This document shows, piece after piece, positions 12,082 to 35,931 of a stretch of 35,931 nucleotides of DNA; within the stretch, counting starts at the first letter, position 1, and each line of letters begins with the position of its first letter. The notes beneath the pieces were generated by a model. The model was not told where the DNA came from and did not search any database. It worked only from the letters and a program-made list of their open reading frames with translations. The translations under genes and the position numbers were made by a program. This DNA comes from an uncultured Candidatus Peribacteria bacterium. GTDB lineage: Bacteria > Patescibacteriota > Gracilibacteria > BD1-5 > UBA2023. The stretch spans positions 5,696 through 41,626 of the forward strand of contig CAZRBF010000001.1 of assembly GCA_964598195.1 (NCBI GenBank). The letters run 5' to 3'.

Positions 12082-12909
12082 CTAATTTATGTCATACGGT
12101 GCACCTTTGAGATTTACTGTATCGATTCGGTAATTATCTCCGGTATAACTTGGTCCCCATCTCTTGATGAGATGTGGTGTCTCGTCAGCATTGATATGAA
12201 CAGTATTAGATTGACTCGTGCTCCATGTCGGACTTACTTCTATACTATCAGAATTAATTTTTGTTACCGTGAAGAGACCCCCGGTACTCGTAAACTCTAC
12301 AACGTCTTTTACTCTAAATCCTGTCTCTATTGCGAGCTTTCCACTGAAGGTAAAGACGTTACTTCCACTATTGATAACCCCCGCATAATTATTGGATCAT
12401 AATCTTGGGACATATGTTCCATCTATCAATGACTTCGGACTTCAGCCATTTTCTATGGTTGCAGCCAGTTCATAGTAAGAGCCATTATAATACGTAACTC
12501 CTATCTTGTACGCTGTAGTTGTTTTTGTAGGATCGGAGAAGTTTTCTTGTTTGAGTCAGAGTACATTGTAGTTGACATCACCACCGACATAAGTTCCAGA
12601 GAGTGCCCCATATCACTCTATCCCAGAGAGCCGTATACGACTTCCATTTGCACCAACTGTTGGTCCAGTATTAGTGTGTGTTATAGTGGATCCTGTGCCA
12701 AGTACAAATATATTAACAGGAGACCCTTTGATTATAGAGAGATCTATCGCCTGTTGTATATTTCAGAGATCTGAACTCCGTCGTGAATCTCGGGCATCTG
12801 CGGCCATTCCTTGAAAAGAGAGAAAAGAGACAGTTCCAAGAATCACCAAAATTGTGATGACCACGATTAGTTCCACAAGAGTAAATCCTTTTTGATTTGT
12901 TTGTTTCAT
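12082..12909 (-). CDS. type IV pilin-like protein (prepilin-type N-terminal cleavage/methylation domain)
   Basis: ATG at 12907-12909 (minus). MKQTNQKGFTLVELIVVITILVILGTVSFLSF is the classical G/FTLVE class III signal. The 275-aa frame is joined by five TGA codons and ends at TAG 12082-12084. It lies 30 nt upstream of the lyase-like gene. Confidence 0.8.
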
Positions 12910-19474: not shown

Positions 19475-19512
19475 TTATTTATTTTTAAATCATAACAATT
19501 ACAACTATGTGA

Positions 19513-20535
19513 ATGTTCAATAATCTTTTCAGTGATCAATTTATCGATGTTATTCGTTGGGATAATCCAGAACCAGATTTTCTTATAAAAAAATGGAGTC
19601 AGAACCTTGACGAGATAAAAAACAGCTCGAGTCTCGTAGTAGATCCGGGTCTTTCTGCTATCTTTATTCATAATGGTAAGGTTGAGGCGATTCAAACAGA
19701 GTCATGAAAATGGACTCTTGACACTTCTAATGTCCCATTTTTATCCAGTCTCAAAAACTTTATGAGTGGGATGGAGACTCACGATAAGGCACAAGTGTAT
19801 TTTATTAAAACCAACGAGATTACGAACCAAAAGTGGGGAACTCCGAACTGTATTACATATATCGACCCGATTTATAATTTCCCAGTGGAACTCCGTGCTT
19901 TTGGTAATTTTACATTTCGTATCACAGATATAGAAAACTTCTGGGTCAATTATGTGGCGAATAGAGAGAGCGTTTCTACAGATACCATTCGTATGGTAAT
20001 CGTCGATCGTCTCGTTGGAACCATCGCTTCTATACTCGCAAAGAAATCTATTGCATATACTGAGATTGCAAAATATGGACCAGAGATTGCAAAGGATCTC
20101 ATGGAAGCCACAAAGGAAGAATTTGCAAAATTTGGTCTTTCTCTCACAGATTTCCGTATTGAAAATACAAATTTCACCGAAAAAACTCAGGGATTCATCG
20201 ATAAAGTAACTTCTAAGAGTGCCGACGTTGCAGCCATTAATACGACTGCAAATATTAATCAAAGTGCCATGCATAATTACTCAAATATCGAGAAGCTCAA
20301 TATCGCCTGAAAGGCTGCCGAAAATGGTGGTGCAATGGGTGATATGATGGGTGCTGGTATGGGCATGGCAATGGGTGCTTCTATGGCTGGAAGTTTATCT
20401 GGTAAAATCGATACCCAGGAGGTTTCAGTATCGCCAGCTTCTAAACTGGAAAAAATAAAAGAACTCTTGGATAAGTGACTCATTTCCCAGGAGGATTATG
20501 AGAAGAAAAAATCAGAAGTTCTCTCTCAAATATAA
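19513..20535 (+). CDS. SPFH/Band-7 family protein of the YdjI type with C-terminal SHOCT domain
   Basis: Fragments 19513..19707 and 19762..20310 plus the tail are one frame joined by TGA codons. The N-terminus MFNNLFSDQFIDVIRWDNPEPDFLIKKW...EIKNSSSLVVDPGLSAIFIHNGKV is YdjI-like. A Gly/Met-rich linker leads to KLEKIKELLDK(G)LISQEDYEKKKSEVL, a SHOCT motif. TAA at 20533-20535. Alternative ATG at 19507. Confidence 0.8.
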
Positions 20536-20557
20536 TTCCTTTAAATCCTTATCCGCA

Positions 20558-22054
20558 ATGCTTCTTTTTATCGTCGCCCTCATAGCTATATCGGGTATTC
20601 TTTATGAACTTCTTATTTGAACTTTGAGTTCGTACTTGATAGGAGATAGCGTGGCACAATTCTCTCTTACGATTGGGTTGTTTATGACAGGCATGGGTAT
20701 CTGAGCTTATCTTTCTCGATATCTTCAAAAAAAGGCCTTAAAATCATTTTTTTGGATAGAGATTATCCTCGCGATTCTCGGAGGAAGTTCCATTATTCTC
20801 TTGAAGCTTGGTTATACGTATCTTTTTTCTGTAGAACTGAGTTTTTATTCTCTTTATACCATACTTACCCTTCTTATAGGTATCCTCATAGGTATAGAAA
20901 TACCTCTTGTGATGCATATATATAAGATTCTTGGTACCTCAAGAGAAGAGGATGTCTCAAATATTTTTACATTTGATTATATAGGAGCTCTCCTTGCGAG
21001 CCTCATATTTCCTTTTGTACTTCTTCCATATTTGTGAGTATACAATACTGGGGTATTTGTGTGATGTTTAAATCTCATTGCTGCTTGATTATATTTGATA
21101 GCAATACGAAGGGTACTACAAAAAAATGCTTTTATGTGGTATCTACTTACTTGTTTATTGGCTGGAATATATTTGCTAAGTTTGCTTTTCATGGGAGAAC
21201 GACTCGAATCATTCTTTATGAGATCATATTACAAGGAGCCAATTCTGTTTCATGAACAGTCTCCTTATCAGAGTATAGTGCTCACAAAGCGATGAGAAGA
21301 TGTACGACTTTTCCTCAATGGAAACCTCCAGTTTCTCTCTCTCGATGAAGGAAGGTATCATGAGTCACTCATAGATTGGCCGATGAAACTTCTCGCTACA
21401 CAACAAAATATCAATGTTCTTGTCCTTTGAGGTGGGGATGGTTTAGCAGCAAGAAATCTGCTTGCTTATAAAAATATCCAATCTATCACGTTGGTTGATC
21501 TTGATCCACGGATGGTAGAACTTGCCAAGAGTCAAAAAGAACTCCTTATACTCAATAAGTCAAGCTTCCTCGATCCCCGTGTTAAGATAGTCGTATGAGA
21601 TGCCTTTGCATATGTAAAAAAGGAATCAGCTAATCAATTCGATCTCATCGTAGCAGATTTTCCTGATCCACGGGATGTTGGAACTGCTAAGCTCTATTCT
21701 CAGGAGTTTTATATAATGACGAAGTCTTTGCTTCGAGATTCATGAATTTTTGTCACTCAAGCAAGCAATGCCTTTTTCTCGAAAGAAAGTTTTTGGAGTG
21801 TTGAGAAAACGATGAAAGTTGTATTTCAAAACACAAGGCCGTATCATAGATACATTCCAAGTTTCGGAGATTGGGGATTTATTCTTGCTTCAAAGAACGT
21901 AGATAGACTCGTAGATGTAAATTTCTGCAATAGTTCCAGGTGTGACTATTTTGATACAGACTATATGCCAACTGAAATTATTGAGGAAAATACCCTAGAA
22001 AAACCAGTCATTATCCAGTACTATATGCGTGGATACAAACGTTTTAATTTATAA
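20558..22054 (+). CDS. speE: membrane-anchored polyamine aminopropyltransferase (spermidine-synthase domain fused to N-terminal multi-TM domain)
   Basis: ATG 20558 and fragments 20801..21037, 21095..21295 and 21812..22054 are one frame joined by about nine TGA codons. N-terminal TM region LSGILYELLI(G)TLSSYLIGDS. Catalytic region SPYQSIVL...LFLNGNLQF...VLVL(G)GGDGLAARN...ITLVDLDP...IVADFPDP. Confidence 0.85.
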
Positions 22055-22065
22055 CCCTCTTTTTC

Positions 22066-22650
22066 ATGACCTCATCTTTTCAATGTCCTTCGTGTGGGAG
22101 TCCCATAGAATTTGATGCAAAATATGCTCGAATAGTGAGTTGTGTATACTGCCATACTGTTTTAGAATTTGGGACAGGGGAACTTACTATCGTCTGACAA
22201 CAGAGCGAGTTTATTGATTTTCCGAGTATTTTCATAGTAGGTTCAACTACTCCATATAAAGGCAAAAATATCTTTGTTCATGGACTTATTCGATATGAGT
22301 ATGATGGAGGTTTTTTTGATGTATTTTTCGCAGAAATTGATGGAAAAAAGCTTTTTATCCAAGAGGATGATGGCTCGATAACTTTTTTTCAGGAATCAGA
22401 TTGGGTGGATGCTCCATTTGAATTGGACCTTTCTATGGTGGGAAAATCACTCGTAATAGATGGAAGTAATTACTTTATCCAAGAAACCTGAGTTCAAAAA
22501 GTAGTAAATATCAAGGGGAGTATTGATTCGCTTTTTGTACCAAATAAAGAATATGAATACTATGATGGCACTACAAATGGGAATCAGATTTTTATTAGGA
22601 GAAATCCTGAAACGAAACAGATTCGAGTAGGAAAAGAAATCAGTATTTAG
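22066..22650 (+). CDS. Zn-ribbon plus DUF4178-domain protein (second copy)
   Basis: ATG 22066 gives MTSSFQCPSCGSPIEFDAKYARIVSCVYCHTVL, then KGKNIFVHGLIRYEYDGGFFDVFFAEIDGKKLFIQEDDG. There are two internal TGA codons and TAG at 22648-22650. Invisible in the standard-code track. Confidence 0.7.
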
Positions 22651-22664
22651 CCATAACAAAAGAT

Positions 22665-23303
22665 ATGCTCGAAATATTTATTCCAACAGAAATTCCCGAT
22701 ATCCTCTCGCTCCATTTGATAGAACCAGGTTTTTTCTCATTGGTGAAGGCTCATTTTCCTGTGACTATTACTCCATTTGAGTCACCGTTTTTTCAGGGTT
22801 TCCATATTCAAACAACGAGTGAATCTCAGGATATAGTATCTCTCTGTAATGGTTCATTCTGAACAGACTATTTCATAGATTATGATTGGCAGAATTCTCA
22901 GATCACCTCGCTCGGAAAGCGTTTTTTTCAACCAGATTCCATAGGAATGGAACTTACATCTATATCGAATGATTTTGATTCTATCGTTCAGACTTTGAGT
23001 TCTGATTATCTTTTGACGAAGTCGAAAAAAGAGGAAAGTATTAGAAAGATTAAACACTCATTTTTTCTTCTTTCTGGAGTTGTTTTTAATCTCGTGGAAC
23101 TTCGTAGAAAAGTTCGAGAGAATATCCATGAACTTGAAGCTCTGGCAAATGATTCAGAACAAAAAATCGAGTATCAAAGCCATGGGGCTTTACTCATAGA
23201 GCCTCTTCGAACCAAAGAGATAGAACTGACTGCGAGTCTTGGTACACTCGAACAAAAAGTCGCTCTTTTTATAGACGCAACGAAACATTTTATAACCACA
23301 TAA
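22665..23303 (+). CDS. hypothetical protein (212 aa)
   Basis: ORFs 22665..22862 and 22947..23303 share a frame and are joined by TGA 22860-22862. TAA stop. No recognised motif; the C-terminal half is helical. Confidence 0.55.
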
Positions 23304-23636: not shown

Positions 23637-24746
23637 ATGGCAGATACACAAGTAAAAACACAGGATCCAGCAACTCAGGCTGCGGTTACAGAAATGAAGA
23701 TTATGACTCTCGGTGCTCTTGAACGAGCCGAAGTAGAGGCAACTTTTGCTGAGGCAAAAGACTTTCGATCCATCGGAGAAAAGATTACTGCTCCACTCGA
23801 TAGTATTATCTCCGAAACTGCGAAGATCATCGACAAGGATCCGATAATGAATGTAAATGAGGAACTCCAAACCATGAATACCTCCGTTCAGGCAGTGTAC
23901 AAGGAGATTATCGACAATGACGGAACTATTATGAAGATTGCGAAATCTATTCCACTCATCAGCGGGCTCGCAAAAACACTCGATGCTAAGTGGGACGAGG
24001 CAAGTTTCAATGTAAAATCACTCGAAGGGAAAATCGGAGTTATTTTCTCCGGATTTGACCAAGCATATACGAGTCTGAATACCTCGATCGATATGCAAAA
24101 ATCCTTTCTCGATGGAATCGAAGCCAATATCGGCAAGGTCGTTGCTTACAAGGAATTTCTCGCTGAAAAGATTCTGGAGTTCAAATCAAAAGGAGAATTG
24201 GCAACCAGCGAAGACGAGAAGATGAAATATGATATGTTCCTCCGAAATGTGGAATTCTTTCAGTCCAACCTCGTAGTCCTCATCGGAAACCTCGAGCTTG
24301 CTCGAAAACGTCTTCTGATTCGACTTGATAGTGCCGCAAAGCTCTCTCTTGCGATGAATTCGTCACGACCCATATTCAAAACTCTCCTCTCTACTGCCCT
24401 CATTGAAACCTCTTCACAGAAAGCTCTCGAGGCAAGTATTAAGGCCATAGGAGTTATGGGTGAAACCATCGACAAGATGTCCTCAGGACTCACTGACAAG
24501 GCGATCGAGTCCAGTCGTCGAGCCGAAGAGATGTCTTCCAAGCCGGTTCTCTCGACGTCCGTATTCATCGAAAATGTCACCAAGCTCAAGAATCACTTCG
24601 AGGAAATCGATGCATACCGAGCTCAGGTGAAAATCGAAGCTGACAAAGAGAAAACTCTTTTTGCTGAAGCTAAGACCAAACTTGACAACATCAAGACTAT
24701 CTCCAAGAAAAATCAGGAAGAACTTGCAGAACAACTTTCACAGTAA
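23637..24746 (+). CDS. TelA-family (toxic anion resistance / YaaN-YceH-like) protein
   Basis: 369-aa all-helical ORF. Its length and helix pattern fit TelA (for example LRNVEFFQSNLVVLIGNLELARKRLLIRLDSAAKL..., IETSSQKALEASIKAIGVMGETIDKMSSGLTDKAIESSRRAEE, VLSTSVFIENVTKLKNHFEEIDAYRAQ). TAA stop. No TGA codons. Confidence 0.65.
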   Translation: MADTQVKTQDPATQAAVTEMKIMTLGALERAEVEATFAEAKDFRSIGEKITAPLDSIISETAKIIDKDPIMNVNEELQTMNTSVQAVYKEIIDNDGTIMKIAKSIPLISGLAKTLDAKWDEASFNVKSLEGKIGVIFSGFDQAYTSLNTSIDMQKSFLDGIEANIGKVVAYKEFLAEKILEFKSKGELATSEDEKMKYDMFLRNVEFFQSNLVVLIGNLELARKRLLIRLDSAAKLSLAMNSSRPIFKTLLSTALIETSSQKALEASIKAIGVMGETIDKMSSGLTDKAIESSRRAEEMSSKPVLSTSVFIENVTKLKNHFEEIDAYRAQVKIEADKEKTLFAEAKTKLDNIKTISKKNQEELAEQLSQ

Positions 24747-24757
24747 TTGGAATATAA

Positions 24758-24790
24758 ATCTCTCCCGAGTTCTCGGGAGAGATTTTTTTT
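24758..24790 (+). terminator. strong rho-independent terminator after the TelA-family gene
   Basis: atctctcccgag / ctcgggagagat is a 12-nt inverted repeat with 2 nt between the arms, followed by T8. Confidence 0.85.
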
Positions 24791-24811
24791 AAAAATAATT
24801 TTTTTAAGGAT

Positions 24812-25555
24812 ATGGAAGAACTATCTAATACTGCTCTACAAGAAATAAAAGACTTACAACAAAAAGATGTTTTTCAATTTGTTTTGGTTCACTTTTGAAT
24901 ATTGCTATTATCTTTATTTGTAATATTTTTTGTATCGTCTATTATCTCTGGAATATTGAATTTAAGTAGGGATTTCTTTGGATTGAGTTTAGTGTGATAT
25001 TCTATCGCAGCTATTATCTATGCAGTATGGATTTTTTATACTATTTTTTTCAGATATGATCGTATGATCAATAGATTTAATCAAGAAATTCAAATTATTA
25101 AAAATAAAAAAGATTTTATAGAAGAACAATTTATGGAACTTACATGATATATAGAGAAGGATATTAATGAGATGGGTATTGATAATTGATTGGTAATGAA
25201 AATAAAAATGAGCATTGATACTATTCGTAACAATATCACAGACTATGTAGTATCTGTAAAAAAACTTGGAATTAGCAAAGAATTCTCTTGATTGATAGTT
25301 AACTCTAAAAAATTTCTTGATTTACAAGTAAAGTTTACCACTTCTATTTTACAGGAGATGAATTTTTGACAACAAAATTTAATACAACTTATCCAATCCT
25401 GGATCTCCCATCATGCAACAGAACTTGCAGAACTCGAAAAACAGATAGCATCACAGGAGCTTGCTACTGAAAATACCGGATGAAAAGTAGCTCTTGAGAT
25501 TTCAAGAATCTCCTTGCAGGAGCATTTGAAGGAGTTAGAGAAGGTGAGGGTTTAA
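24812..25555 (+). CDS. array paralog A: 2-TM membrane protein with conserved C-terminal helical module (XpaC-like architecture, unverified)
   Basis: ATG 24812 opens a 247-aa frame through eight TGA codons to TAA 25553-25555. TMs: VLVHF(G)ILLLSLFVIFFVSSII and SLV(G)YSIAAIIYAVWIFYTIFF. C-terminus: QSWISHHATELAELEKQIASQELATENTG(G)KVALEISRISLQEHLKELEKVRV. Confidence 0.7.
25394..25555 (+). repeat. 162-nt conserved 3' coding module, copy in paralog A
   Basis: caatcctggatctcccatcatgcaacagaacttgcagaactcgaaaaacag...ggagcatttgaaggagttagagaaggtgagggtttaa aligns colinearly with 27006..27167 and 27837..27998. Confidence 0.85.
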
Positions 25556-25571
25556 AAATAACTTATGTGTT

Positions 25572-26342
25572 ATGGTATGATGAATAAATGATAGAACTAA
25601 TCCTCAGATAGAGTGATTTATTCTGAAATTATCAGATCGAAGTATATCGTATCAGGTAATAAAATATAGAATCTTCGCTCTTGCTCTATGTAGTTTTTTG
25701 TATCTTGGAGGATTTATATCTGGGCTCTTTTGATCTAGTATTTTGACATTACCTTTCTGGATTATATGAATCTATTTTTTGCTCTTTTTACCACCAAAAA
25801 ATGAAATTGAAGGTATTATAAACTATACCGTATATCAAATGAGAGTTATCGGAGAACAAAAAATGGCTCTTCAAGATTCCTTTGATCACTTTCTTGAATT
25901 AGGAAAGAACGATTTTAGGGAAACATGAATTAATCCTATACTGGTAACAGATACTGCCAATGAAATTAATGGCATTTCTACAAAAGTACAAACATTCCAA
26001 AAACTTCTCACTGATTTTGATAAGGATATAAGGATATCTGGCAAAGAATGATCCGGTGTACCTCCGATGATGGTTCGTTTTATTCGTTGGCACTTTGCAG
26101 ATATAATTAAAGATTTTATCGTTTCTCAGCAAGAATGGATTAAAGGCGCTGTTCCTATTTTCTCTAAATGAATACAAGCCTTTCTTACAAACCATGCCAA
26201 TGAATTAAAAGAACTTGATACATCTATTTTGAAGCAGGCAGAATTGACGGAGAGCCTCTCAGGACAATGAGTATTAGATCTTCAGAAAGTTCGACTCGAG
26301 AAGCATATCGAGAATCTTGATAAGGTACGAGCAAGATTATAA
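25572..26342 (+). CDS. array paralog B (divergent member)
   Basis: ATG 25572 opens a 256-aa frame through about ten TGA codons (translated codon by codon) to TAA 26340-26342. There are two TMs. C-terminus: QAFLTNHANELKELDTSILKQAELTESLSGQ(G)VLDLQKVRLEKHIENLDKVRARL. Confidence 0.65.
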
Positions 26343-26363
26343 TCTTATTTTTAAAATTTGAAT

Positions 26364-27167
26364 ATGAAACAACACTACATGGAACCAGACATAGAAAAAT
26401 ACGTCACCACTCGCCAAAATCATCTGGAATATAAACGGTTTCAAGGGCTATTTCTTATTGACATTATAGGATATGAAGCATACGCCAATATGAAATCTTC
26501 TCTTTTTTCGGAGTGGTTATTTTCTAAAATTACCATACATTTATTCTCTATTTTTCATATTTTTTGATGATTTTTGCCTATTTTATATTGATGTTATCGT
26601 GTGTATTCTGAACAATCTCTTGAGTCCCTTACATTTCTGTTATTCTTCGTAGCCTTTTGAATAGGATTAATTCATACAGGATATAAATCTTTCCGCAGAA
26701 TAGCCGTATATAAGAAAACTCTCCGTTATCTTGAATCGAAAGATACTATCGTGAGCGAAAGAGAAAAGCTCGAAACAAGCATAGCAAACGATGTAAATAA
26801 TGGTTGAATAGATGTGGCTATTTTGTGGGATATCAAAAAATGCATAGTCTCTATCCTTGAATGATATCGGATTATATCAGTCTCGCATGAATATATATTG
26901 AACCATAAGTGATATTTTGGAAGAATATCCCGAGAATGACAAGAGGTTATCAATAAAGAGTTTCAATGGATTGTCGCTTACTCACAGGAATTTACTCTCC
27001 TTGTTCAATCCTGGATCTCCCATCATGCAACAGAACTTGCAGAACTGGAAAAGCAGATGGAATGACAGGAGCTTTCGACAGAGAATACTGGTTGAAAAGC
27101 AGCACTCGAGATTTCGAGAATATCACTACAGGAGCATTTGAGGGAGTTGGAGAAGGTGAAGGTTTAA
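26364..27167 (+). CDS. array paralog C
   Basis: ATG 26364 (ORF 26358..26567 is its first fragment). The frame was checked codon by codon through twelve TGA codons to TAA 27165-27167. C-terminus: QSWISHHATELAELEKQME(G)QELSTENTG(G)KAALEISRISLQEHLRELEKVKV. Confidence 0.7.
27006..27167 (+). repeat. 162-nt conserved 3' coding module, copy in paralog C
   Basis: Same length and register as the copies in A and D. Similarity between C and D extends about 50 nt further upstream (from about 26958 and 27789). Confidence 0.85.
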
Positions 27168-27206
27168 TTTGGGGTGAGATTTTTTAAAAAGTAATAACCA
27201 TAAGAT

Positions 27207-27998
27207 ATGGATGCTAATAATCTTGAGGATAAATATACTGAATTTCAGACATTATTACTCATTGACCTTATGTGAAATACGACCTATGAGAAGATGAAAT
27301 CATCTCAATTAACAACATTAACATTTTATAAATTTACTATAATTCCGTTAATTCAAATAATCATATGATTATTTATATGTCTCGCTATCATGTGAGAATA
27401 TTTTGATGTAATATTTGGACACTCTGATTTAGTAAAAGATGGATGATTTTCTACGAGCCTAGTTCTCTTTGTTCTATTTTTTTCTTTGGCTTTTTATTGA
27501 TATATAAAGCTCCGTAAGATATTTTTATATAAAAATATTTTTTACTATCTTGACAGCAGAGATTCTATCATTTCTGAAAATAAAAATTTTGAAATTCTTA
27601 TCAAAGAAGATTTTGATAAACACTGAATAGACGCGGACATTATCCTGCGGATTAAAAAATCTATCTCATCTATTCTAAAAGGTTATGCTTTGATTTCAAA
27701 ATACCACAAAGGCACCCAAGAACAGTTATTGAAAATAGGTATGCTTATGCGTATATTTAATGGATGATTAATGAAGATGATTGATAGTGAACTTCAATGG
27801 ATTGTTGACTATTCGCAAGAATTTACTCATTTTGTCCAATCCTGGATCTCTCATCATGCAACCGAGCTCGCAGAACTCGAAAAACAGATAGCATCACAGG
27901 AGCTTTCAACGGAGAATATTTGAGGAAAAGCTGCTCTTGAGATTTCGAGAATGTCACTTCAGGAGCATTTGAAGGAGTTGGAGAAGGTGAGGGTTTAA
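27207..27998 (+). CDS. array paralog D
   Basis: ATG 27207 opens a 263-aa frame through eight TGA codons to TAA 27996-27998. It is homologous to C along its whole length (LLIDLM(G)NTTYEKMKSS versus LFLIDIIGYEAYANMKSS). C-terminus: QSWISHHATELAELEKQIASQELSTENI(G)GKAALEISRMSLQEHLKELEKVRV. Confidence 0.7.
27837..27998 (+). repeat. 162-nt conserved 3' coding module, copy in paralog D
   Basis: Same length and register as the copies in A and C. By eye it is roughly 85-90 percent identical at nucleotide level. Confidence 0.85.
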
Positions 27999-28062
27999 AA
28001 TAATTTGTATTAACGTACTGAATTACTATAATCATACTATTTACTCATTATTAGTCCATCCC

Positions 28063-29340
28063 ATGCCCATCTCCATCCCACCAGAGCTTTCCTCAAGAAA
28101 TTCGCTCATTCGAGAGTCCGTTGAATCCAGGGGATTCTATCTCTATAACTGGATATCGTTTGAAGAGCTTCGCAAGACGGTTGCGAGGGACTATCTATGG
28201 CTCCTCTCCAGGCTTCTTGTGCCCTTTGGAATAGTCGTAATCCTTGGAGGATTGTACGATTTTTATGTCCTTTGAGACACGAGATTTATCTGGACGATTA
28301 TCTGACTCACTGGAGTGTATACTCTCATATTTTTGGTGATCATCTTTCGCATGATTGCACGATCGTGGACCTTTCTTCATATTTCAAATATAGTATTTAC
28401 CGATACCCATCTTTGAATCGGTGGTCAAATAGTTCCTTATAAGGAGTATGATACAATGAGCGAACAGATTCGTGAATGGGGTGACGAATTTGAAGAAGAA
28501 TTCATGATGCCATCTAAGATAGACGAAAAAATTGGGCAATTCAAGGCCCGGGTATTTACGTGGGGTGCGAGCAAAGAGGAGAAGAAGACAAAAAAAGAAA
28601 CTTCTATGTTAGACAGCTGTGGGAGCTTTGATGGATGTGGAAAGTCAAATAGCTGTGGGGGTCCTGATTGCTGAGACGTTGGAGATGGAGCAATCGTTTT
28701 TGTCGTGATTGTTTTCTGACTCATTGCTGCATACTGGATTTCCATACGAGTATTCTACGCTCTCGGGTGGATACTTTCTTTCCTCATCGGGTGGATATTT
28801 GTTGGTATCATGAAGATGATCGTGATAGTACAATGACGCGAAGAGATGAAAATCCAAGGACTTTTCGAGAAGCTTGAAATACTCGCAAGTGAACTTATTT
28901 CGTCGAAAAATATGATTGTAAAAAGTCTTAAAAGTGCTAATGAATGAGCATGGGACGAGTGAACCAAATGAGTGGTGGATAAGTTTAGTATGACTATCGG
29001 GAAAGCATGGACAGGGATCAATCTTGTGAAGAAACTAAAATCTACACTTGAAAGTTCGAAATACACGAGTATATTTAATTATGAGACATTCGATCTTTGG
29101 ACCAAGGGTCAGATTCTTGAACCCATTAATGAGATGATAGAACTACAGAGTACTTCGCTCAGAAAACTCGAGGATTCTATTTTTACTCTCAAAAATCAGA
29201 TACAAGAGACTCAGAATCCAGCTTTTGTAATTCTACTTGAAACGCAACTCAAACGATTGGAGATCCAACGAAAGCCACTCGAATCTATGCAAGATCAGTG
29301 GAAGGGGGTAGGGGCGAAGATTATTGTTGGAAAGTTTTAA
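28063..29340 (+). CDS. array paralog E: ~4-TM membrane protein (425 aa), long form of the same family, with Cys/Gly-rich insert
   Basis: Fragments 28063..28275, 28456..28674 and 28972..29340 are one frame joined by TGA codons. N-terminal motif PPELSSRNSLIRESVESRGFYLYNWISFEELRK. C-terminal module IFNYETFDLWTKGQILEPINEMIEL...LLETQLKRLEIQRKPLE. TAA stop. Confidence 0.7.
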
Positions 29341-29352
29341 CCTTCACTTTTT

Positions 29353-29568
29353 ATGTTTAAGAATTTTGCTATATCACTCATAGAACTCTACCAGATCTAC
29401 TTCAGTCGAGATCATTCCTTTTGGCGAACCTCAGATACTCGCAGAATCTGCAAGATGCAACCAAGTTGCAGTCAGTATACTCGAGAACAGATAGGGAAAT
29501 ATGGAGCATTGAAAGGAATGTATCTCGGATGGAATCGGGTTCGGAGTTGTGGGAAAAGTAGGAAGTAA
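29353..29568 (+). CDS. yidD: membrane protein insertion efficiency factor YidD
   Basis: 71-aa ORF. LIELYQIYFS...CKMQPSCSQYTREQIGKYGALKGMYLGWNRVRSCG matches the YidD signature (LIxxYQ, C-x-PSCSxY, G..KG, R...C). Confidence 0.85.
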   Translation: MFKNFAISLIELYQIYFSRDHSFWRTSDTRRICKMQPSCSQYTREQIGKYGALKGMYLGWNRVRSCGKSRK

Positions 29569-29571
29569 TTA

Positions 29572-30843
29572 CTACTTAATTATCTCTCCTGTATATACTG
29601 CTTCAAACGCACTGCCAGGAACCTTCTTCAGTTGGTTGAGATTATCGTCGTTCCACCTCGTGTCGGATGCTCCGGTTATGAACCAATTGGATCCATTGTC
29701 AGCGACGATGAGTCCGTATTTTTTGAGTGCTTCGAGAATAGCCCGAGCTTCCCCTGTGTACTTTGAAGTGTCAAAATCGGCCTTCAGTCGAAGTTTGAGA
29801 CCCATAGGAAGAGCATTCGGATCTTTTATACTTGAGGCATAGTGTGTGGCTGGGTGGATAAACCCGCGTTGTGTTTTGGAGAATGTGACACGTAAGGCAT
29901 GACGAATCTCATTCTTACTCGCTTCATCGTATCGAGCAAGTCCTGGGAATATAGGCAGTCAGGCTGCATCGGCGGAAGTCCAGTAATCTGGGCGCAGAGC
30001 ATTGGAGCGCAGATCGTATTTTGCAGCAGAACTCGCGTCCCAACCAGTCTGAGTTTTGTGTGCATTATAGAGCTCATACAACATACATGCATTCTGATCC
30101 ACGACGATAACATGTCGATCACCATCGCTCGAGTTTCCTCACTCTACAGGGGCATTATCAGGAATAGGATATGGTCCCGGATCACTTTCGTCACCGTAGT
30201 CAGTAAAATTAATGGGCACTTTTTTCTGATCTTTTCCGACGGTTACAAAGGGTATTCCGTATTCTCCATTTCCTCAGAAATCAGCATGCAGAAATTGGTT
30301 TCCAGAAAGATTTTTGATATATGTCATGTAATTTGCCGAGTTTGGATGAACCTTGAGTCCCGAGATATCCTGATTCCAGCTATTATCCGCTGGAAAAATA
30401 GAGCAACTTCCGACTGCTGGATGAGTTGGAGTTGGTGCGGGAGGCATTGCTGGTGTTGGAGTTGGTTGTGTTGGTACTGGAGGTACTGGAACTGGTACTG
30501 GAGTTGGTTGCACTGGAGGAACTACAGCCCCCGTTCTCCCGAGCTCACTCCCGATAAGATCATCCATTTCTCCGATAGACGGATCCTTGAGCCTCTCGAT
30601 AACCGCATCAATTATCGCGAGAATTGTAGCATTTCATGTATATTTTTTCTTGAGCTTCGTGAGCGCTCGTATGTACTTTTCACGGTACGACTCTCACTTT
30701 ACATGGATCGCTCATTCTATTTTAGTTGTTATGCGCTCAACAACAGTACTTGTGTTTACTTCTTGCGCCGAGATACTTCAGGCGAGTGAGAGTAAGACAC
30801 ACCCAGCCACCAGATACTTTATATACGTTCGAGAAAGGATCAT
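29572..30843 (-). CDS. secreted conserved hypothetical protein with Pro/Thr-rich linker
   Basis: Fragments 29572..29805(-) and 30274..30567(-), the stretch between them and the upstream part to ATG 30841-30843 are one frame (translated by hand) joined by TGA codons. Signal peptide YLVAGCVLLSLAGSISAQ. Linker PPVQPTPVPVPVPPVPTQPTPTPAMPPAPTPT. Globular domain with DESDPGPYPIP, DGDRHVIVVD, WTSADAA(G)LPIFPGLARYDE, PMGLKLRLKADFD, ADNGSNWFITG. TAG stop. Confidence 0.7.
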
Positions 30844-30994
30844 AAATGGAAAATTAAGAAGTACAAATTGTCTGTAAATTGTAGCAGAAAAAATGGGGGA
30901 AGCAAGAGTTAGTTAGTGATTTTTTGAAATAAAATTTGATTTTTCCTGAGTATCTGCTATAGTTGTATAAAATTTAACAGTTAAAATTTATACA

Positions 30995-32353
30995 ATGAAA
31001 TTCTATAACAGAAAACAAGAACTTGAGATACTCCAAAAAATAACCAATTCATCCCGTTCGGAGCTTGTATATTTTCTAGGGAGGCGACGCATTGGTAAGA
31101 CGAGTCTTATGAATCATTTTTTTACGAGCAAGAATCAAAAATACTTGTATTTTTTTGTGTCTAACAAAAAAGAATGAAACCTTTTGCAGAGTTTTTCCGA
31201 AACTCTCAAAGAATATCTAGGTTATGACATACACTTCCATTCCATCAGAGAATTTCTCAAATTTTTATTTGAGTATGGAAAAGAGCATCCTTGACTTTGT
31301 GTCGTATTTGACGAGTTTCAAAATTTCACGTATGTTGATGAAAGTATTTTTGATGATTTTCAAGAATTTTGGGATAAATATAAAGAAGGGGCCAATATAA
31401 AACTCTTCGTGATCGGATCACTCTTTACTCTTATGGAGGATATCTTTCAGAGTAAAAAATCTCCACTTTTCGGCAGAGCAACTGCAAAAATTGACGTGCA
31501 AGAATTTGAAGTCGTGACACTTAAAAATATCCTTAGTGACTATGATATGTTTTCGAGTAGGAATCTGCTCGATATATATACACTGTTTGGTGGAGTTCCA
31601 AAGTATTTAGAAGTATTGGACACTATTAAACCCTGAGAGAACCTCTTACTCGAAACCATTCTGAGTGAAGTGTATCTTACGGAAAATTCTATGTTCCTGA
31701 GAGAATGATCCGATCTTCTGCTGACCGAATTTGGAAAAACATCCAGTGTGTATTTTTCCATACTGGAAGCTATTGCCAATGGATACAATAAGAGATCAGA
31801 GATTGCCGATTATACGAAAATGAACTATGATTCCCTTGGACTCTATCTTGAGAATCTTGAAAAAGTATATCATTATATTGAGAAACTTACCCCTATTATC
31901 GCACAAAAAACAACCCTCAATAGATATAAAATCCAAGATAATTTTCTCATTTTTTGGTTTCGATATATCTATAAAAACAGCAATCTTCTCGAGATTAAGA
32001 AATATACAACCCTCAAAGATCATATTCTGGCCGATATAACCAGTCTCCAGTGATTTGCCTTTGAAAAACTCGTGAAAGATCTTCTGATTACTCAAAATAT
32101 CACAAATAGATATATCATAGATTTTGAGAGTATTGGAAATTACTGGGATAAGAGTGGGAATGAGATAGATCTTATTTGTCTGAATTCGCGCACCAAAGAG
32201 GTAGTTTTTGTAGAGTGCAAGCTCAGTGGTACGAAGATTACTGGAGCAGTAAAACAGTCACTTATTGCAAAATCAGAGAATATTCCTGAGCTCAAAGATT
32301 ATAAAAAGTATTACCAGTACTATAGTTTGGATAATCTGGAGGAGTTGTTTTAG
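30995..32353 (+). CDS. ATP-binding protein, Arch_ATPase/DUF234-type AAA ATPase
   Basis: Fragments 30995..31177, 31409..31636, 31748..32053 and 32072..32353 are one frame joined by TGA codons. N-terminus FYNRKQELEILQK...LGRRRIGKTSL (Walker A), Walker B VVFDEFQ. A winged-helix-like middle region (SVYFSILEAIANGYNKRSEIA) and a C-terminal DUF234-like nuclease-fold tail (GNEIDLICLNSRTKEVVFVECK). TAG stop. Confidence 0.75.
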
Positions 32354-32357
32354 TAAT

Positions 32358-32439
32358 AAATAATTGGATATTTGAGGGGATTTGTGGTAGGATGAGGGAA
32401 GATTAAATAGTATTCGAAATACTTTATAAAAATAACATC
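32358..32439 (+). promoter_or_regulatory. conserved upstream element, copy 1 (43-nt G-box repeat plus -10-like box) in front of paralog F
   Basis: aaataattggatatttgaggggatttgtggtaggatgagggaa (32358-32400) is identical to 34412-34454. It is followed by aaatactttataaaaataacatc and ATG 32440. Confidence 0.55.
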
Positions 32440-33723
32440 ATGTCAAAAGCCAGAAATATCTCCAGGCAACAAGCCTCAAAATCCATCATACTTCCATCAG
32501 AAATCCAAAAAGTTGTGGATGAAAGGGGGTTTTATTTGTATGAGTGGGTGAGTTTTGTTGATTTTTTTCGCTCAATAGGAAAATATTTTGTAGTTGCGGT
32601 TGAAAAAAATTGGGGAGTATTTCTTTTTTTCACATTTCTTATAATACCACTTACTTTTTACTCTTGGTTATTTTTAAAAAATAATCTTATTTTTCAATAT
32701 ATATTGGCGATAGTTCTCTTGGGAATTATTTTATCTATCTTAAAATCTTCTCTGTTATTCTCTCTTAAATATGCCAAAAGTATTCAAGTTATTTTTTTAA
32801 AAAATTCAATTATTTTTAATAAAAAATTGTCCGATTATAAATCTCCAAATAAAGAAATAGTCGTATTATGAAGTATCTTTTTTAAACCTCTTTTAGAAGT
32901 TCAGACACAAGATATTGATAACTATCAGTCTTTTATGTGGACATTGGAGGATAAAAGTAAATGAGATATCGGTGCAGCAGGGCTTATATATATGGTGATA
33001 ATAATATTTTGAGTAACACTTTCACATCGTTGGACTGCTGGTTCTTTTATGGATTTATATCTTCCGCTTACTATCTTTGTTGTCCCTATTTGTGCAGTAA
33101 TGATTTATGTATTTTTTTTAAAACAATTTGAGTACTTGATGCAAATATTCATTTATATATTTTTTTTCATACCATTAGCTATATTCAGTTTCCTTATTAA
33201 TTTTCTTTTCTTTTCCATAATTAAGCTCATCACCTTCTTTACTCACTACACCGAAAACAGCATCAACTCACTATTTTCCTCCATCGAAAAATCTTCCAAT
33301 ATCCTCCAGTGTCAGAAGCAGAAACTTCTTGATTCATTGGAAAATGGAACTGGATTTTATGATTTTCAGAAAGTTTTTTCGCTTCTTTCTCGCTCTGCAG
33401 ACTCGAGCATAATCAATTCTCATAAACTTGAGAAACTACTCAAGGACTCTAAATTCCATGATATCTTTGATTTCGAAATCTACCACTCGTGGATTCGTAA
33501 GCAAGTCCGTGAACCATTGGAACAGATCTTGAATCTTATGGAAGATAACCTTCAGATTCTGAAAGAAACAAAAGAGAAACTCGTAAATCAGATTACTGAA
33601 ACGATTGATCAGAATCTTCGTGCTCCACTCGAGCTTCAGCTGGTAAGAATGGATGAGCAAATAGGGGGATTTGAGAGAAATAGACCTATTCTGAGAGAAT
33701 ATTTCGAGAAATTGAAAAATTAA
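32440..33723 (+). CDS. array paralog F: multi-TM membrane protein (427 aa), long form
   Basis: Fragments 32440..32871 and 33049..33723 share a frame and are joined by three TGA codons. N-terminal motif PSEIQKVVDERGFYLYEWVSFVDFFRS. C-terminal module IFDFEIYHSWIRKQVREPLEQILNL...RAPLELQLVRMDEQIGGFE. TAA stop. Confidence 0.7.
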
Positions 33724-34043
33724 CTTTTCAGTAACCTTTTTAATTCTGGTAAAGAATATTTGATACTACTCCACACAATTTCCTCGTCTATTCAGGCATA
33801 GTCATGTGAAATTCGATTCCTAAATCCAGACATCTCATTAAAGGGGATATTTTTGTAGTCCTGAGAAGTAAGAGATCGGATTTTGAGTCCGCATTCTCAG
33901 ATGTGTTGCAATTGCATACAGCATGCATCAAAAGTTTTCTCATCGTCGTAAAATGCTCATAAATCCATACCTTCAACGTAGCGCTCTATTTTATCGATGG
34001 CATTAAGGATCTCGTACTCGTAATATTGGATATTTTTTTCCAT
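33720..34043 (-). CDS. hepT: HepT-like (DUF86) RNase toxin of an MNT/HepT toxin-antitoxin pair
   Basis: Hand translation gives MEKNIQYYEYEILNAIDKIERYVEGMDL(G)AFYDDEKTFDACCMQLQHI(G)ECGLKI...FRNRISHDYA(G)ID. The RxxxH motif (RNRISH) is present. TAA at 33720-33722 overlaps the stop of paralog F by 3 nt. Confidence 0.8.
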
Positions 34044-34044
34044 G

Positions 34045-34353
34045 TTAAAAAATCGTTATAAGATCTTTTTCTATGTATTCCTTCAAATAAGGATTTATTT
34101 TTCTTTTTGTTACAAAATCCACTTTTTTTACCTTGCATTCTTTCACGAGTATTTCCTGTAAATCTTCAAGAGTCCCAAGGGTAACTCTATTGTCTTTCGA
34201 GAGCTCTATAAGAAGGTCAAGATCGCTATTTTTTGTTGCTTCATCTCGAGCATACGATCAGAATAACGATAAGTGACTAATCCCAGAAGTAAGAAAACGA
34301 TTTTTAATCTTTTCTGATGAAAGTGTTTCTTTTATAGTTTGAGACTGGGTCAT
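34045..34353 (-). CDS. mntA: MNT-type nucleotidyltransferase antitoxin
   Basis: ATG at 34351-34353 (minus). ISHLSLF(G)SYARDEATKNSDLDLLIEL is the GS-x10-DxD minimal nucleotidyltransferase motif. TAA at 34045-34047 lies 1 nt before the hepT ATG. Confidence 0.8.
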
Positions 34354-34411
34354 ATTTTGCATAGTTACTGGTAATTGGTCGTAAGTATACGGATTTTCGA
34401 TATATTTCCAA

Positions 34412-34492
34412 AAATAATTGGATATTTGAGGGGATTTGTGGTAGGATGAGGGAAAAATGAATACCATACAAAATACTTTGTAAAATAATTTT
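34412..34492 (+). promoter_or_regulatory. conserved upstream element, copy 2 (43-nt G-box repeat plus extended -10) in front of paralog G
   Basis: 34412-34454 is identical to 32358-32400. TGTAAAAT (extended -10) at 34479-34486 ends 7 nt before ATG 34493. The same region is also upstream of the divergent mntA. Confidence 0.55.
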
Positions 34493-35860
34493 ATGTCTTA
34501 TTCTCTTCAGAATCTCCCATTGGAACTTCAACAGACTCTTAATTCACGGGGTTTTTGCTTTTATAGCTGGATCAGCTATAAAGAATTTTGGCTTTCTATT
34601 CAGAGATTTTTTCTCTCAAAAATGAAGACAATTGTTCGAATTCACTTACTTGTTGGTGTTATTCTTCTCTTTGGATTTTTTATCCTGCCGTTCTTGTCTC
34701 TACAAACAAATGATGAAAAATACTGATTTTTTGTGAGTCAGATATTTCCGATGGCTGTGATGTCTATATATATACTTTTCATCGTGTACATCGCTCTATT
34801 GCATACAAGAAAATATTTAGAGTCCGCCTATATCGTATTTACCAAAGAGTATATTATAGGATTTGGATGAACAACTTCTTATGCAGACTCGTCTCTAATT
34901 TACTGAAAAATTAGGGAATTATGAAAATTTTTCGAGGAACCACTTTTTGGAGAATCGAGACTTCATATTGATAAAAAAGAGCTCAAAAGTCTCTTGTATG
35001 ATGATTTGCGAAGATATTTCTTTTTTCGATCATGGCATAATGTAGATATGAATTGGGAACGAATATTTTCTTACTTTGTTATCTGGGCCACAGTATTCGG
35101 TGTATTTATACCATTTAATTCACCATTCAAAGCATTTATCTGGTCTATCTTTGGGCTCATTATGATCGGCATATTTGCTCACTCTCAAAAAGAGAGACGA
35201 GAATATCAGAAAAATATGGATAAAGATTATCTCCTTCTCATGAATATTATTGGAATTTTTGCTATGGTATTTTCTATTATTGTTTATATGATAGGAAGTA
35301 TCATAGTCTTTGCGATCAGTGGATTTTTTCTTCTTTTTGCTCAAATCATACTCCGTATTACGAAAGCTCGTGAGATGTATATACATCAAGCTTTTCGATC
35401 TATTGAGGATGCTTCATGGAGATTACGAAATTTACAAGATGAAGCTTGTGAATATTTATTCCAAGTATCCAAGAGTCATTTTTCTGATCGAGCTCTCTCA
35501 AAGATTGAAAAAACTCTGAAAAGTATATCCAGAGAAGCCGATATTTGTGTATGCAAAAGTACCCAATTGAGAAAATATTTTCATTCACAAGGGTATGATA
35601 ATATTTTCGATTTTCACACCTACGATCGTTGGCTTCGTACAGAAATGCTTCCACCAATCCAGGATATTTGCTTGATTTTGCAAAAGCAATATAATCTTCT
35701 CGAAACAAGCATATTATCCATTTCTGGGCAGATCACTGAAAGCTTGGATACTTTTCGACCAGCTCTGCAGTTGCAAGAACAGCGTCTTATGAAACAGAAA
35801 ACATTACTTTGAGAAAATATTGTAATTTTGGAGGGGTATATGAGGGAACTGGAGGGATAA
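34493..35860 (+). CDS. array paralog G: multi-TM membrane protein (455 aa), long form
   Basis: Fragments 34493..34726 and 34994..35812 share a frame and are joined by TGA codons. The standard-code end TGA 35810-35812 is read through to TAA 35858-35860. N-terminal motif PLELQQTLNSRGFCFYSWISYKEFWLS. C-terminal module IFDFHTYDRWLRTEMLPPIQDICL...RPALQLQEQRLMKQ. Confidence 0.7.
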
Positions 35861-35931
35861 TTGATTTTTAACAAATGAGACTTCATGAGCATATTGAGAA
35901 TTTGAATCAATTGAAAAATACTTTGTAAAAT
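35824..35931 (+). promoter_or_regulatory. degenerate third copy of the upstream element at the window edge
   Basis: aattttggaggggtatatgagggaactggagggataa has G-boxes related to the 43-nt repeat and here forms the 3' end of paralog G. aaaaatactttgtaaaat at 35914-35931 is identical to the -10 box of copy 2. The window ends where the next ATG would be expected. Confidence 0.4.

Follow-up and report, generated by a model that had tools for sequence, protein, structure and literature searches.

The question raised by this locus is what a TelA-like gene does when it stands at the head of an array of genes for membrane proteins in an uncultured Candidatus Peribacteria bacterium. The window, that is, the whole stretch of DNA analysed, comprises 35,931 nt of contig CAZRBF010000001.1, and the cluster in question occupies its right end (23637-35931). 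TelA proteins are widespread in bacteria and phages, where they affect susceptibility to nisin, daptomycin and tellurite, and their mechanism is not known (PMC12791056). The cluster was compared with 80 loci from species-representative genomes, which were chosen via an alignment of TelA-like homologs, translated with table 25 and searched with hidden Markov models (HMMs) of the window genes. This comparison shows that the conserved unit across Gracilibacteria is a triad made of the TelA-like gene, one long membrane anchor and a single-ring classical AAA ATPase, and that the anchors carry a helical module which is homologous across five architectures (with 0, 1 or 2 transmembrane (TM) helices or, in the long form, with two TM hairpins). 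Copy number of the module genes is very plastic in the lineage, the window lying near the extreme of a continuum. As to function, analogy with known systems suggests that the cluster maintains or remodels the cell membrane under envelope stress, as a machine of TelA-like protein, anchors and ATPase; we give this reading an even chance, and the descriptive parts (triad, module family, topology and expansion) are much firmer than the mechanism.

The region splits into short open reading frames (ORFs) under table 11, and the total ORF length in the window is multiplied by three once UGA is taken as a sense codon. In an alignment of the window genes with their orthologs, the columns holding a UGA codon are mostly glycine in the orthologs (53-67%) and not tryptophan; therefore table 25 is the right code. 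Relatives in the database are named Candidatus Gracilibacteria. With UGA read as glycine, eight ORFs were recovered at exactly the coordinates that the initial annotation of this stretch had given them, all on the + strand. The TelA-like gene (23637..24746) contains no in-frame UGA and encodes a soluble, all-helical protein of 369 amino acids (aa). It is followed by four genes for short paralogs, A (24812..25555, 247 aa; one TM hairpin and a cytoplasmic helical module), B (25572..26342, 256 aa), C (26364..27167, 267 aa) and D (27207..27998, 263 aa), and by three for long paralogs, E (28063..29340, 425 aa; an RGF box, two TM hairpins and the helical module), F (32440..33723, 427 aa) and G (34493..35860, 455 aa). 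In the loci fetched from other genomes, genes were taken as homology-labelled ORFs; longest-ORF calls with UGA as a sense codon gave antisense shadow ORFs, for example over the AAA gene.

The gene order that recurs among the 80 loci is TelA-like gene, long form of the E-G type (~405 aa) and AAA ATPase (~430 aa). Of the 65 loci whose downstream sequence extends over at least 3 kb, 51 have the long form. The adjacency of a TelA-like gene and a membrane partner, seen in the window, is conserved as well, since a module gene starts less than 300 nt past the TelA-like stop codon in 41 of these 65 loci. Where at least 6 kb of downstream sequence was available (54 loci), the AAA gene was found within 10 kb downstream in 35 cases and exactly one long copy in 40; three long copies occur only in the window. 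The cluster was found so far only in Gracilibacteria and in related lineages that use UGA as a sense codon.

The ATPase gene itself lies just beyond the right edge of the window, immediately downstream of G. A second contig (L001; NCBI, GCA_020049755.1) carries protein G; it shares 5158 identical nt with the window and continues for another 2.4 kb to the right. On this contig a gene for a 431-aa classical AAA ATPase starts ~50 nt past the window end (window-equivalent position 35981). Its product matches PF00004 with 125.6 bits (E = 2.3e-36), has the Walker A motif GPPGTGKT and finds its best PDB relatives in Cdc48/VCP (~1e-70). The match to Vps4_C reaches 18.8 bits (E = 0.0016), under the cutoff of 21.3 bits; an MIT domain was not detected, and the N-terminal 178 residues are without PDB relative. 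A further paralog of the array had been expected beyond the right edge, and what was found there instead is the ATPase gene followed by a gene for a 129-aa protein. The latter (L001 6525-6914, ~1.3 kb right of the window end) belongs to no known family, is not a module protein and was found in L001 and L002 only.

In the initial annotation A-G were presented as seven paralogs. BLASTP comparisons within the window, with E-values scaled to a database of 1e8 residues, gave two clear groups. A-D form one family (C/D 48% identity, 1e-62; A/D 41%, 1e-30), in which B is the most divergent member (1e-5 to 6e-8 against the rest), and E-G form a second one (2e-7 to 8e-21 among themselves). However, no BLASTP match was found between A-D and E-G; within the window by itself the two groups are not significantly linked. 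The predicted N-terminal hairpins are present: A-D have two TM helices, hence one hairpin, and E has four, arranged in two hairpins, while F and G display ~5 hydrophobic segments. The N-terminal box of E-G (RGF-x-x-Y-x-W-I) proved to be conserved family-wide, with G24 in 100%, F25 in 98% and W30 in 92% of 59 sequences. Lysine and arginine residues average 3.0 and 2.6 in the two 15-residue flanks of the hairpin, as against 0.7 in the loop, whose median length is 12 residues. By the positive-inside rule the helical domain is therefore cytoplasmic, as had been proposed, and very little protein is exposed outside. Searches with A-G and the TelA-like protein against Pfam, NCBIfam, PADLOC, PHROGs and PDB sequences returned nothing above threshold.

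A C-terminal module shared by short and long forms could not be established from the window, where profiles of A-D and E-G gave only 10% in hhalign (P = 0.003, over the last 46 columns). It becomes credible with deeper profiles. Non-overlapping profiles drawing on the 80 related loci (15 short and 59 long sequences) gave 86% (P = 4.9e-6) over 140 collinear columns. This match pairs the whole post-TM domain of the short forms with the C-terminal 150 residues of the long forms and ends at both C-termini. Reversed profiles used as controls gave P values of 0.02-0.05, and a profile of the equally helical TelA-like protein gave 0.02-0.44; the similarity of short and long forms is therefore more than an effect of composition. 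The module is ~140 residues long and has the core W-[IV]-x2-[HQ]-x2-E-[LI] ... G-x3-L-x-L-Q-[KR]-x-R-L-[ED]-x-[QH]-I.

Three more classes of module proteins were recovered by iterative search in the same loci. The "up" class (~150 aa, 1 TM) is encoded directly upstream of the TelA-like gene in 18 loci and matches A-D at 99.2% (1.5e-19). A soluble 0-TM class (~180 aa), encoded between the long form and the AAA ATPase, matches A-D at 97.9% (3.7e-13). The "post" class (~220 aa, 2 TM) is found as 1-3 tandem copies after the AAA gene in 13 loci and matches both groups (95.1% to A-D, 95.3% to E-G). No Pfam family was recurrent in a scan of 22 diverse module proteins at E<=10, and XpaC/Halogen_Hydrol (PF10112) is absent from the 25 most recurrent families listed for them; this family had no match to A-G at E<=1 either. 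The family is unannotated.

How such a family could have escaped notice is suggested by the genetic code. When 5.8 billion proteins were searched with the E-G alignment, only 3 members came back, whereas table-25 translation of the 80 loci yielded at least 56 long-form members. All of the 56 long-form genes of other loci contain in-frame UGA (median 10), which is probably why the large database holds so few of them, since table-11 calling fragments these genes. The case illustrates how protein families can be hidden by genetic-code recoding.

The first gene of the cluster, called a TelA-family gene in the initial annotation, belongs to a family with 590 homologs in the database and ~70% identity across Gracilibacteria. 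Its product thus ranks with the better conserved proteins of Gracilibacteria and is likely to be important for these bacteria, which are uncultivated and depend on hosts, and whose genomes are reduced. Its homologs are "hypothetical" in every source that gives a name, and a precomputed Pfam domain is attached to none among the 120 matches listed. The window protein did not match the TelA family PF05816 at E<=1. Of 48 homologs the highest-scoring one reached 18.9 bits, the gathering cutoff being 30 bits. Weak matches were nevertheless obtained for 4 of 22 distant homologs (best E = 3.2e-4) and 3 of 26 close ones. Among the distant homologs PF05816 was the most recurrent Pfam family; among the close homologs it was matched less than several generic coiled-coil families. 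In independent distant members the matches are collinear with the profile in two stretches, residues 68-148 aligning with profile positions 74-147 and residues 182-272 with positions 231-320.

Structure prediction points in the same direction. An AlphaFold2 (AF2) model computed from a shallow alignment had a predicted local distance difference test (pLDDT) score of 58. A diverse alignment led to an all-helical, TelA-like model with an overall pLDDT of 64, in which a long hairpin (residues 130-250) reaches 74-90. When the model was compared with BFVD by Foldseek, the top five matches (E = 9e-5 to 5e-3) were near full length. Those at ranks 2-5 are phage proteins of 362-387 aa annotated "Toxic anion resistance protein (TelA)" or "Tellurite resistance protein" (E = 4.5e-4 to 5e-3, 333-390 aligned columns, template-modelling scores 0.33-0.52); the remaining one is unnamed. 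The PDB gave generic long-helix matches only (F-BAR, ClyA-type toxins and Vipp1, E >=0.13), and no solved TelA structure was among the matches. Vipp1/PspA scored no better than other long-helix proteins (E = 0.24-0.85, query-normalised template-modelling score <=0.34), and no Pfam match to a Snf7/PspA domain was found in the TelA-like protein. Taken together, the collinear weak matches and the modelled fold, whose weight is limited by the modest confidence of the model, indicate that the product of the first gene has the TelA fold and is probably a very distant homolog of TelA, which falls below the thresholds of the curated family. The original label thus holds for a remote relative but fails at the level of Pfam.

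Wider searches did not connect this family to others. A profile search of 1.84 billion representatives reached 85 relatives only, and not the large classical TelA family. Many of these 85 have tryptophan where glycine is expected and therefore come from other UGA-recoding lineages. Among them is a shorter class of ~260-290 aa (P0142, P0150-P0156 and P0164-P0180 of the profile search), in which ~50 residues at the N-terminus and a portion of the first helical region are missing. A broadened profile brought back the same family from the large database and added nothing, and tblastn of the TelA-like protein against plasmids and phages gave no match even at E<=10.

The number of module genes per locus is typically 1-4, with 5 in a few loci, 7 in the window and at least 9 in the close relative L003. 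The seven-fold expansion noted at the outset is therefore at the top of the observed range, but multiple module genes per locus are common. When scored with an out-group profile of long forms, E obtained 272 bits, G 199 and F 183; as the best match to this profile, which was made from other genomes, E is the ortholog of the single-copy long form of other Gracilibacteria, and F and G are divergent extras. The short genes bear a 224-nt direct repeat on the + strand, which codes for the C-terminal module in A (25332..25555), C (26944-27167) and D (27775-27998), with 75-82% nucleotide identity. Among codons for identical residues, identity at third positions is 0.71-0.80 in this 3' repeat of A, C and D as opposed to 0.43-0.58 in the N-terminal parts, a pattern which suggests that modules were exchanged, or converted, while the TM regions diverged. 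The seven anchors of this genome (4 short and 3 long) would then have arisen by tandem duplication combined with such exchange or conversion at the 3' module. F and G would be additional, diverged copies that have a leader each and are set apart by insertions of defence-type or mobile genes.

The leader in question is a G-rich direct repeat of 74 nt on the + strand, located immediately upstream of F (32358..32431) and of G (34412-34485), with 89% identity between the copies. It has no Rfam match and is missing from the loci of other genomes; elsewhere it was found only in L001 and L002, both of which carry the same protein G. A structured RNA was considered and rejected (folding z-score 0.1-0.9, besides the lack of an Rfam match), and the leader is probably a duplicated promoter or 5' region. 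Directly 3' of the TelA-like gene lies a strong terminator-like hairpin (24756..24785, + strand) with a 13-bp stem including 6 G-C pairs, followed by a T-run; it is a match to consensus only. This hairpin may act as an attenuator that sets the dosage of the TelA-like protein above that of the anchors.

The array is not unbroken. Between E and F are a gene on the - strand for a secreted protein of 423 aa (29572-30843), with a signal-peptide-like N-terminus and a Pro/Thr-rich linker (PVPVPVPPVPTQPTPTP), and a gene on the + strand for a 452-aa ATPase_2 + DUF234 protein (30995-32353), which matches the PADLOC candidate defence gene PDC-S27 (E = 6e-61). The C-terminal domain of the secreted protein had no match in Pfam, NCBIfam or PADLOC. 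Between F and G a toxin-antitoxin pair made of a HepT ribonuclease and an MNT nucleotidyltransferase is encoded on the - strand (33720-34467); the start called for the MNT ORF (34467) is probably placed too far out, so that it reaches into the 74-nt repeat. A HepT/MNT pair recurs inside the arrays of the close relatives L003 (14478-15000) and L004 (2634-3100). The pair may move together with the array, or it may indicate a hotspot of recombination.

What could such a set of proteins do? The conserved third partner, an AAA ATPase encoded beyond the reach of the initial annotation, changes the likely mechanism. The TelA-like protein would form a helical assembly beneath the membrane, at its inner face. 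The anchors would dock or nucleate this assembly there through their cytoplasmic module, the soluble and 1-TM module proteins may cap or regulate it, and the AAA ATPase would disassemble or recycle the complex. Two-component genes, where present, may tune the output, the role of the whole being membrane maintenance or remodelling under envelope stress. Gene linkage of this kind points to a membrane-anchored assembly remodelled with ATP. Literature searches turned up neither the cluster nor an association of TelA with an AAA ATPase, and the members of the cluster are all annotated as hypothetical. What is new here is that a system of TelA plus membrane partner has an AAA ATPase dedicated to it, and that the partner domain is a new one, found in several architectures. 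Because it ties a TelA-fold protein to that ATPase and to anchors sharing a docking-type domain, the cluster offers a testable model for the mechanism of TelA.

The closest known parallel is the XpaC-TelA pair (xpaC-yaaN in B. subtilis, lmo1966-lmo1967 in L. monocytogenes), in which a soluble all-helical TelA-type protein of ~370 aa likewise has an adjacent membrane partner. The partner is small, with an N-terminal TM hairpin and a cytoplasmic helical domain; A-D have two TM helices followed by ~150 helical residues and are encoded next to the TelA-like gene. Links to envelope stress exist on both sides. For the known pair, B. subtilis has xpaC-yaaN(telA) in its core sigma-W regulon (PMC3498285), resistance to daptomycin is mediated by the pair in E. 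faecium (PMC6811118), and the Listeria TelA homolog affects nisin and tellurite susceptibility by a mechanism that is not known (PMC12791056). The resemblance to xpaC-yaaN, which had been remarked upon from the start, is one of architecture; homology to XpaC was tested by sequence and not detected. The present cluster differs further in that its TelA-like protein is below the Pfam threshold, it has a conserved third member in the classical AAA ATPase, its partner family exists in five architectures and multiple copies, and the TelA-like gene comes first in the order.

A second parallel is offered by the PspA/Vipp1/ESCRT-III systems (Snf7-Vps4; PspA with classical AAA+ ATPases), which likewise combine a helical-hairpin scaffold with an AAA ATPase and with partners at the membrane; in ESCRT-III, too, the helical subunits are multiple paralogs. 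Around PspA, Ravi et al. list TPM, band-7, TM-fused spermidine synthase, DUF4178, two-component systems and classical AAA+ ATPases, and they read these associations as machinery assembling sub- and trans-membrane complexes under envelope stress (PMC11237479). The accessory neighbours of the present cluster are of types found in this list, in a paper that does not mention TelA. However, no sequence match and no significant fold match to the PspA/ESCRT-III proteins was found (Vipp1, Foldseek E = 0.24), the multiplied subunits here are membrane-anchored, and on the ATPase no MIT domain was detected and the match to Vps4_C is below threshold. With the TelA of Ter clusters and jumbo phages, which has been described as forming sub-membrane structures (Iyer et al., PMC7824862), the cluster shares the TelA fold, annotated phage TelA proteins being the best named structural matches. 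It differs from Ter clusters in having no TerB, TerC, TerD, TerF or biosynthetic Ter genes, and from mobile Ter islands in that the TelA-like gene is a conserved chromosomal gene of one lineage. A more far-reaching proposal, which we consider rather doubtful, would make the triad an ATP-driven membrane-scaffold machine parallel to ESCRT-III/Vps4 or PspA and built on the TelA fold. The paralogs would be exchangeable nucleators acting through their common C-terminal helix, the ATPase would recycle the polymer, and the machine would form a near-universal core of envelope, division or episymbiotic biology in those UGA-recoded bacteria that belong to the candidate phyla radiation (CPR). If true, it would be the first mechanistic handle on TelA proteins in general.

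Several observations weigh against the proposed role in membrane maintenance or remodelling. The mechanism is one that we infer by analogy and from gene context. In sequence the first protein stays below the TelA threshold, and the confidence of its AF2 model is no more than moderate (pLDDT 64). The additional module classes were recruited by an iterative search seeded with A-D, so that their membership is partly circular, although the cross-class hhalign values are mutually consistent. No long form was detectable in 14 of 65 loci, and the close relative L004 has two short forms, the HepT/MNT pair and the AAA gene but no long form. Two-component and TPM genes occur in a minority of loci only, and the neighbourhood of Band-7 and spermidine synthase genes is common to the window and a single close relative (L005).

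Three other explanations were weighed. One is that A-D and E-G are not homologous and that their C-terminal pattern reflects coiled-coil composition only. The region is indeed helical and rich in E, K, L and Q, and neither BLAST nor the window-only profiles link the two groups. This explanation nevertheless became very improbable once the profiles were deepened, given the 140 collinear columns and the weak scores of the reversed and TelA-like controls. Moreover, the "post" class links to both groups at 95%, and all module classes occur in the same conserved locus. A functional alternative is that the cluster is a conflict or anti-phage system, either a Ter-like sub-membrane barrier or one with an IetA-like ATPase, in which an arms race drove the expansion of the paralogs. 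In its favour, TelA is known from conflict settings in phages and Ter clusters (PMC7824862), PADLOC models of IetA match the AAA ATPase (4e-37), the PDC-S27 gene and the HepT/MNT pair are embedded among the long paralogs, the latter also within the arrays of L003 and L004, and copy number differs greatly among close relatives (2, 7 and at least 9). Yet the TelA-like protein is ~70% identical across at least 80 species-level genomes with synteny kept, unlike patchy defence islands, and neither it nor the anchors have a PADLOC match. The similarity to IetA is generic to the AAA domain, Cdc48 scoring far higher, and no protease is encoded in the cluster that could correspond to IetS, the serine protease partner. 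With ~12 residues outside the cell, the anchors expose little surface for recognition. We hold a defence role to be unlikely.

The third alternative shifts the emphasis to the ATPase, which would be a membrane-protein extractase or quality-control motor of the Msp1/Cdc48 type, with the module as adaptor or handle and the TelA-like protein as cofactor or substrate instead of scaffold. Other systems of quality control are often missing from reduced genomes. Within the classical clade, the ATPase is closest to the Cdc48/VCP segregases, and every module protein has the same conserved C-terminal helix, a possible common handle. An extractase would, however, leave unexplained why conservation and linkage are strongest for the TelA-like protein, a soluble member, as well as the existence of soluble 0-TM module proteins, and the cluster contains no protease partner. 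There is in our view only a small chance that this alternative is correct, and a membrane-remodelling role for the TelA-like protein, its anchors and the ATPase is preferred.

Genes upstream of the cluster were also analysed. In the window, four co-directional genes precede the TelA-like gene: a gene for an SPFH protein (Band_7_1+SHOCT, 19507-20535), one for a multi-TM spermidine synthase fusion (20498-22054), one for a Zn-ribbon/DUF4178-like protein (22066-22650) and one for a further protein of 212 aa (22665-23303). The last was considered as a module carrier and rejected (hhalign P = 0.13-0.51), and the first three were rejected as a conserved part of the system on the basis of their distribution. 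Such a gene set, which the window shares only with its close relative L005, has been described around CesT/Tir-PspA dyads (PMC11237479), and the TelA-like gene of the window stands where PspA would be. Further away, a type IV pilin-like protein with an N-terminal FTLVELIVV motif is encoded on the - strand (12082-12909); it has homologs scattered over several loci and is probably unrelated to the cluster. In other genomes, same-strand genes upstream of the cluster code for an OmpR-type response regulator (12 loci), a histidine kinase (11 loci) and a TPM-domain membrane protein (13 loci). The two-component genes may provide dedicated regulation of the cluster. A response regulator of 219 aa and a histidine kinase of ~400 aa are encoded directly upstream in L024-L026, L017, L027, L034 and L011, a set that includes oral isolates, and in L027 and L034 a TPM-domain protein is encoded upstream as well.

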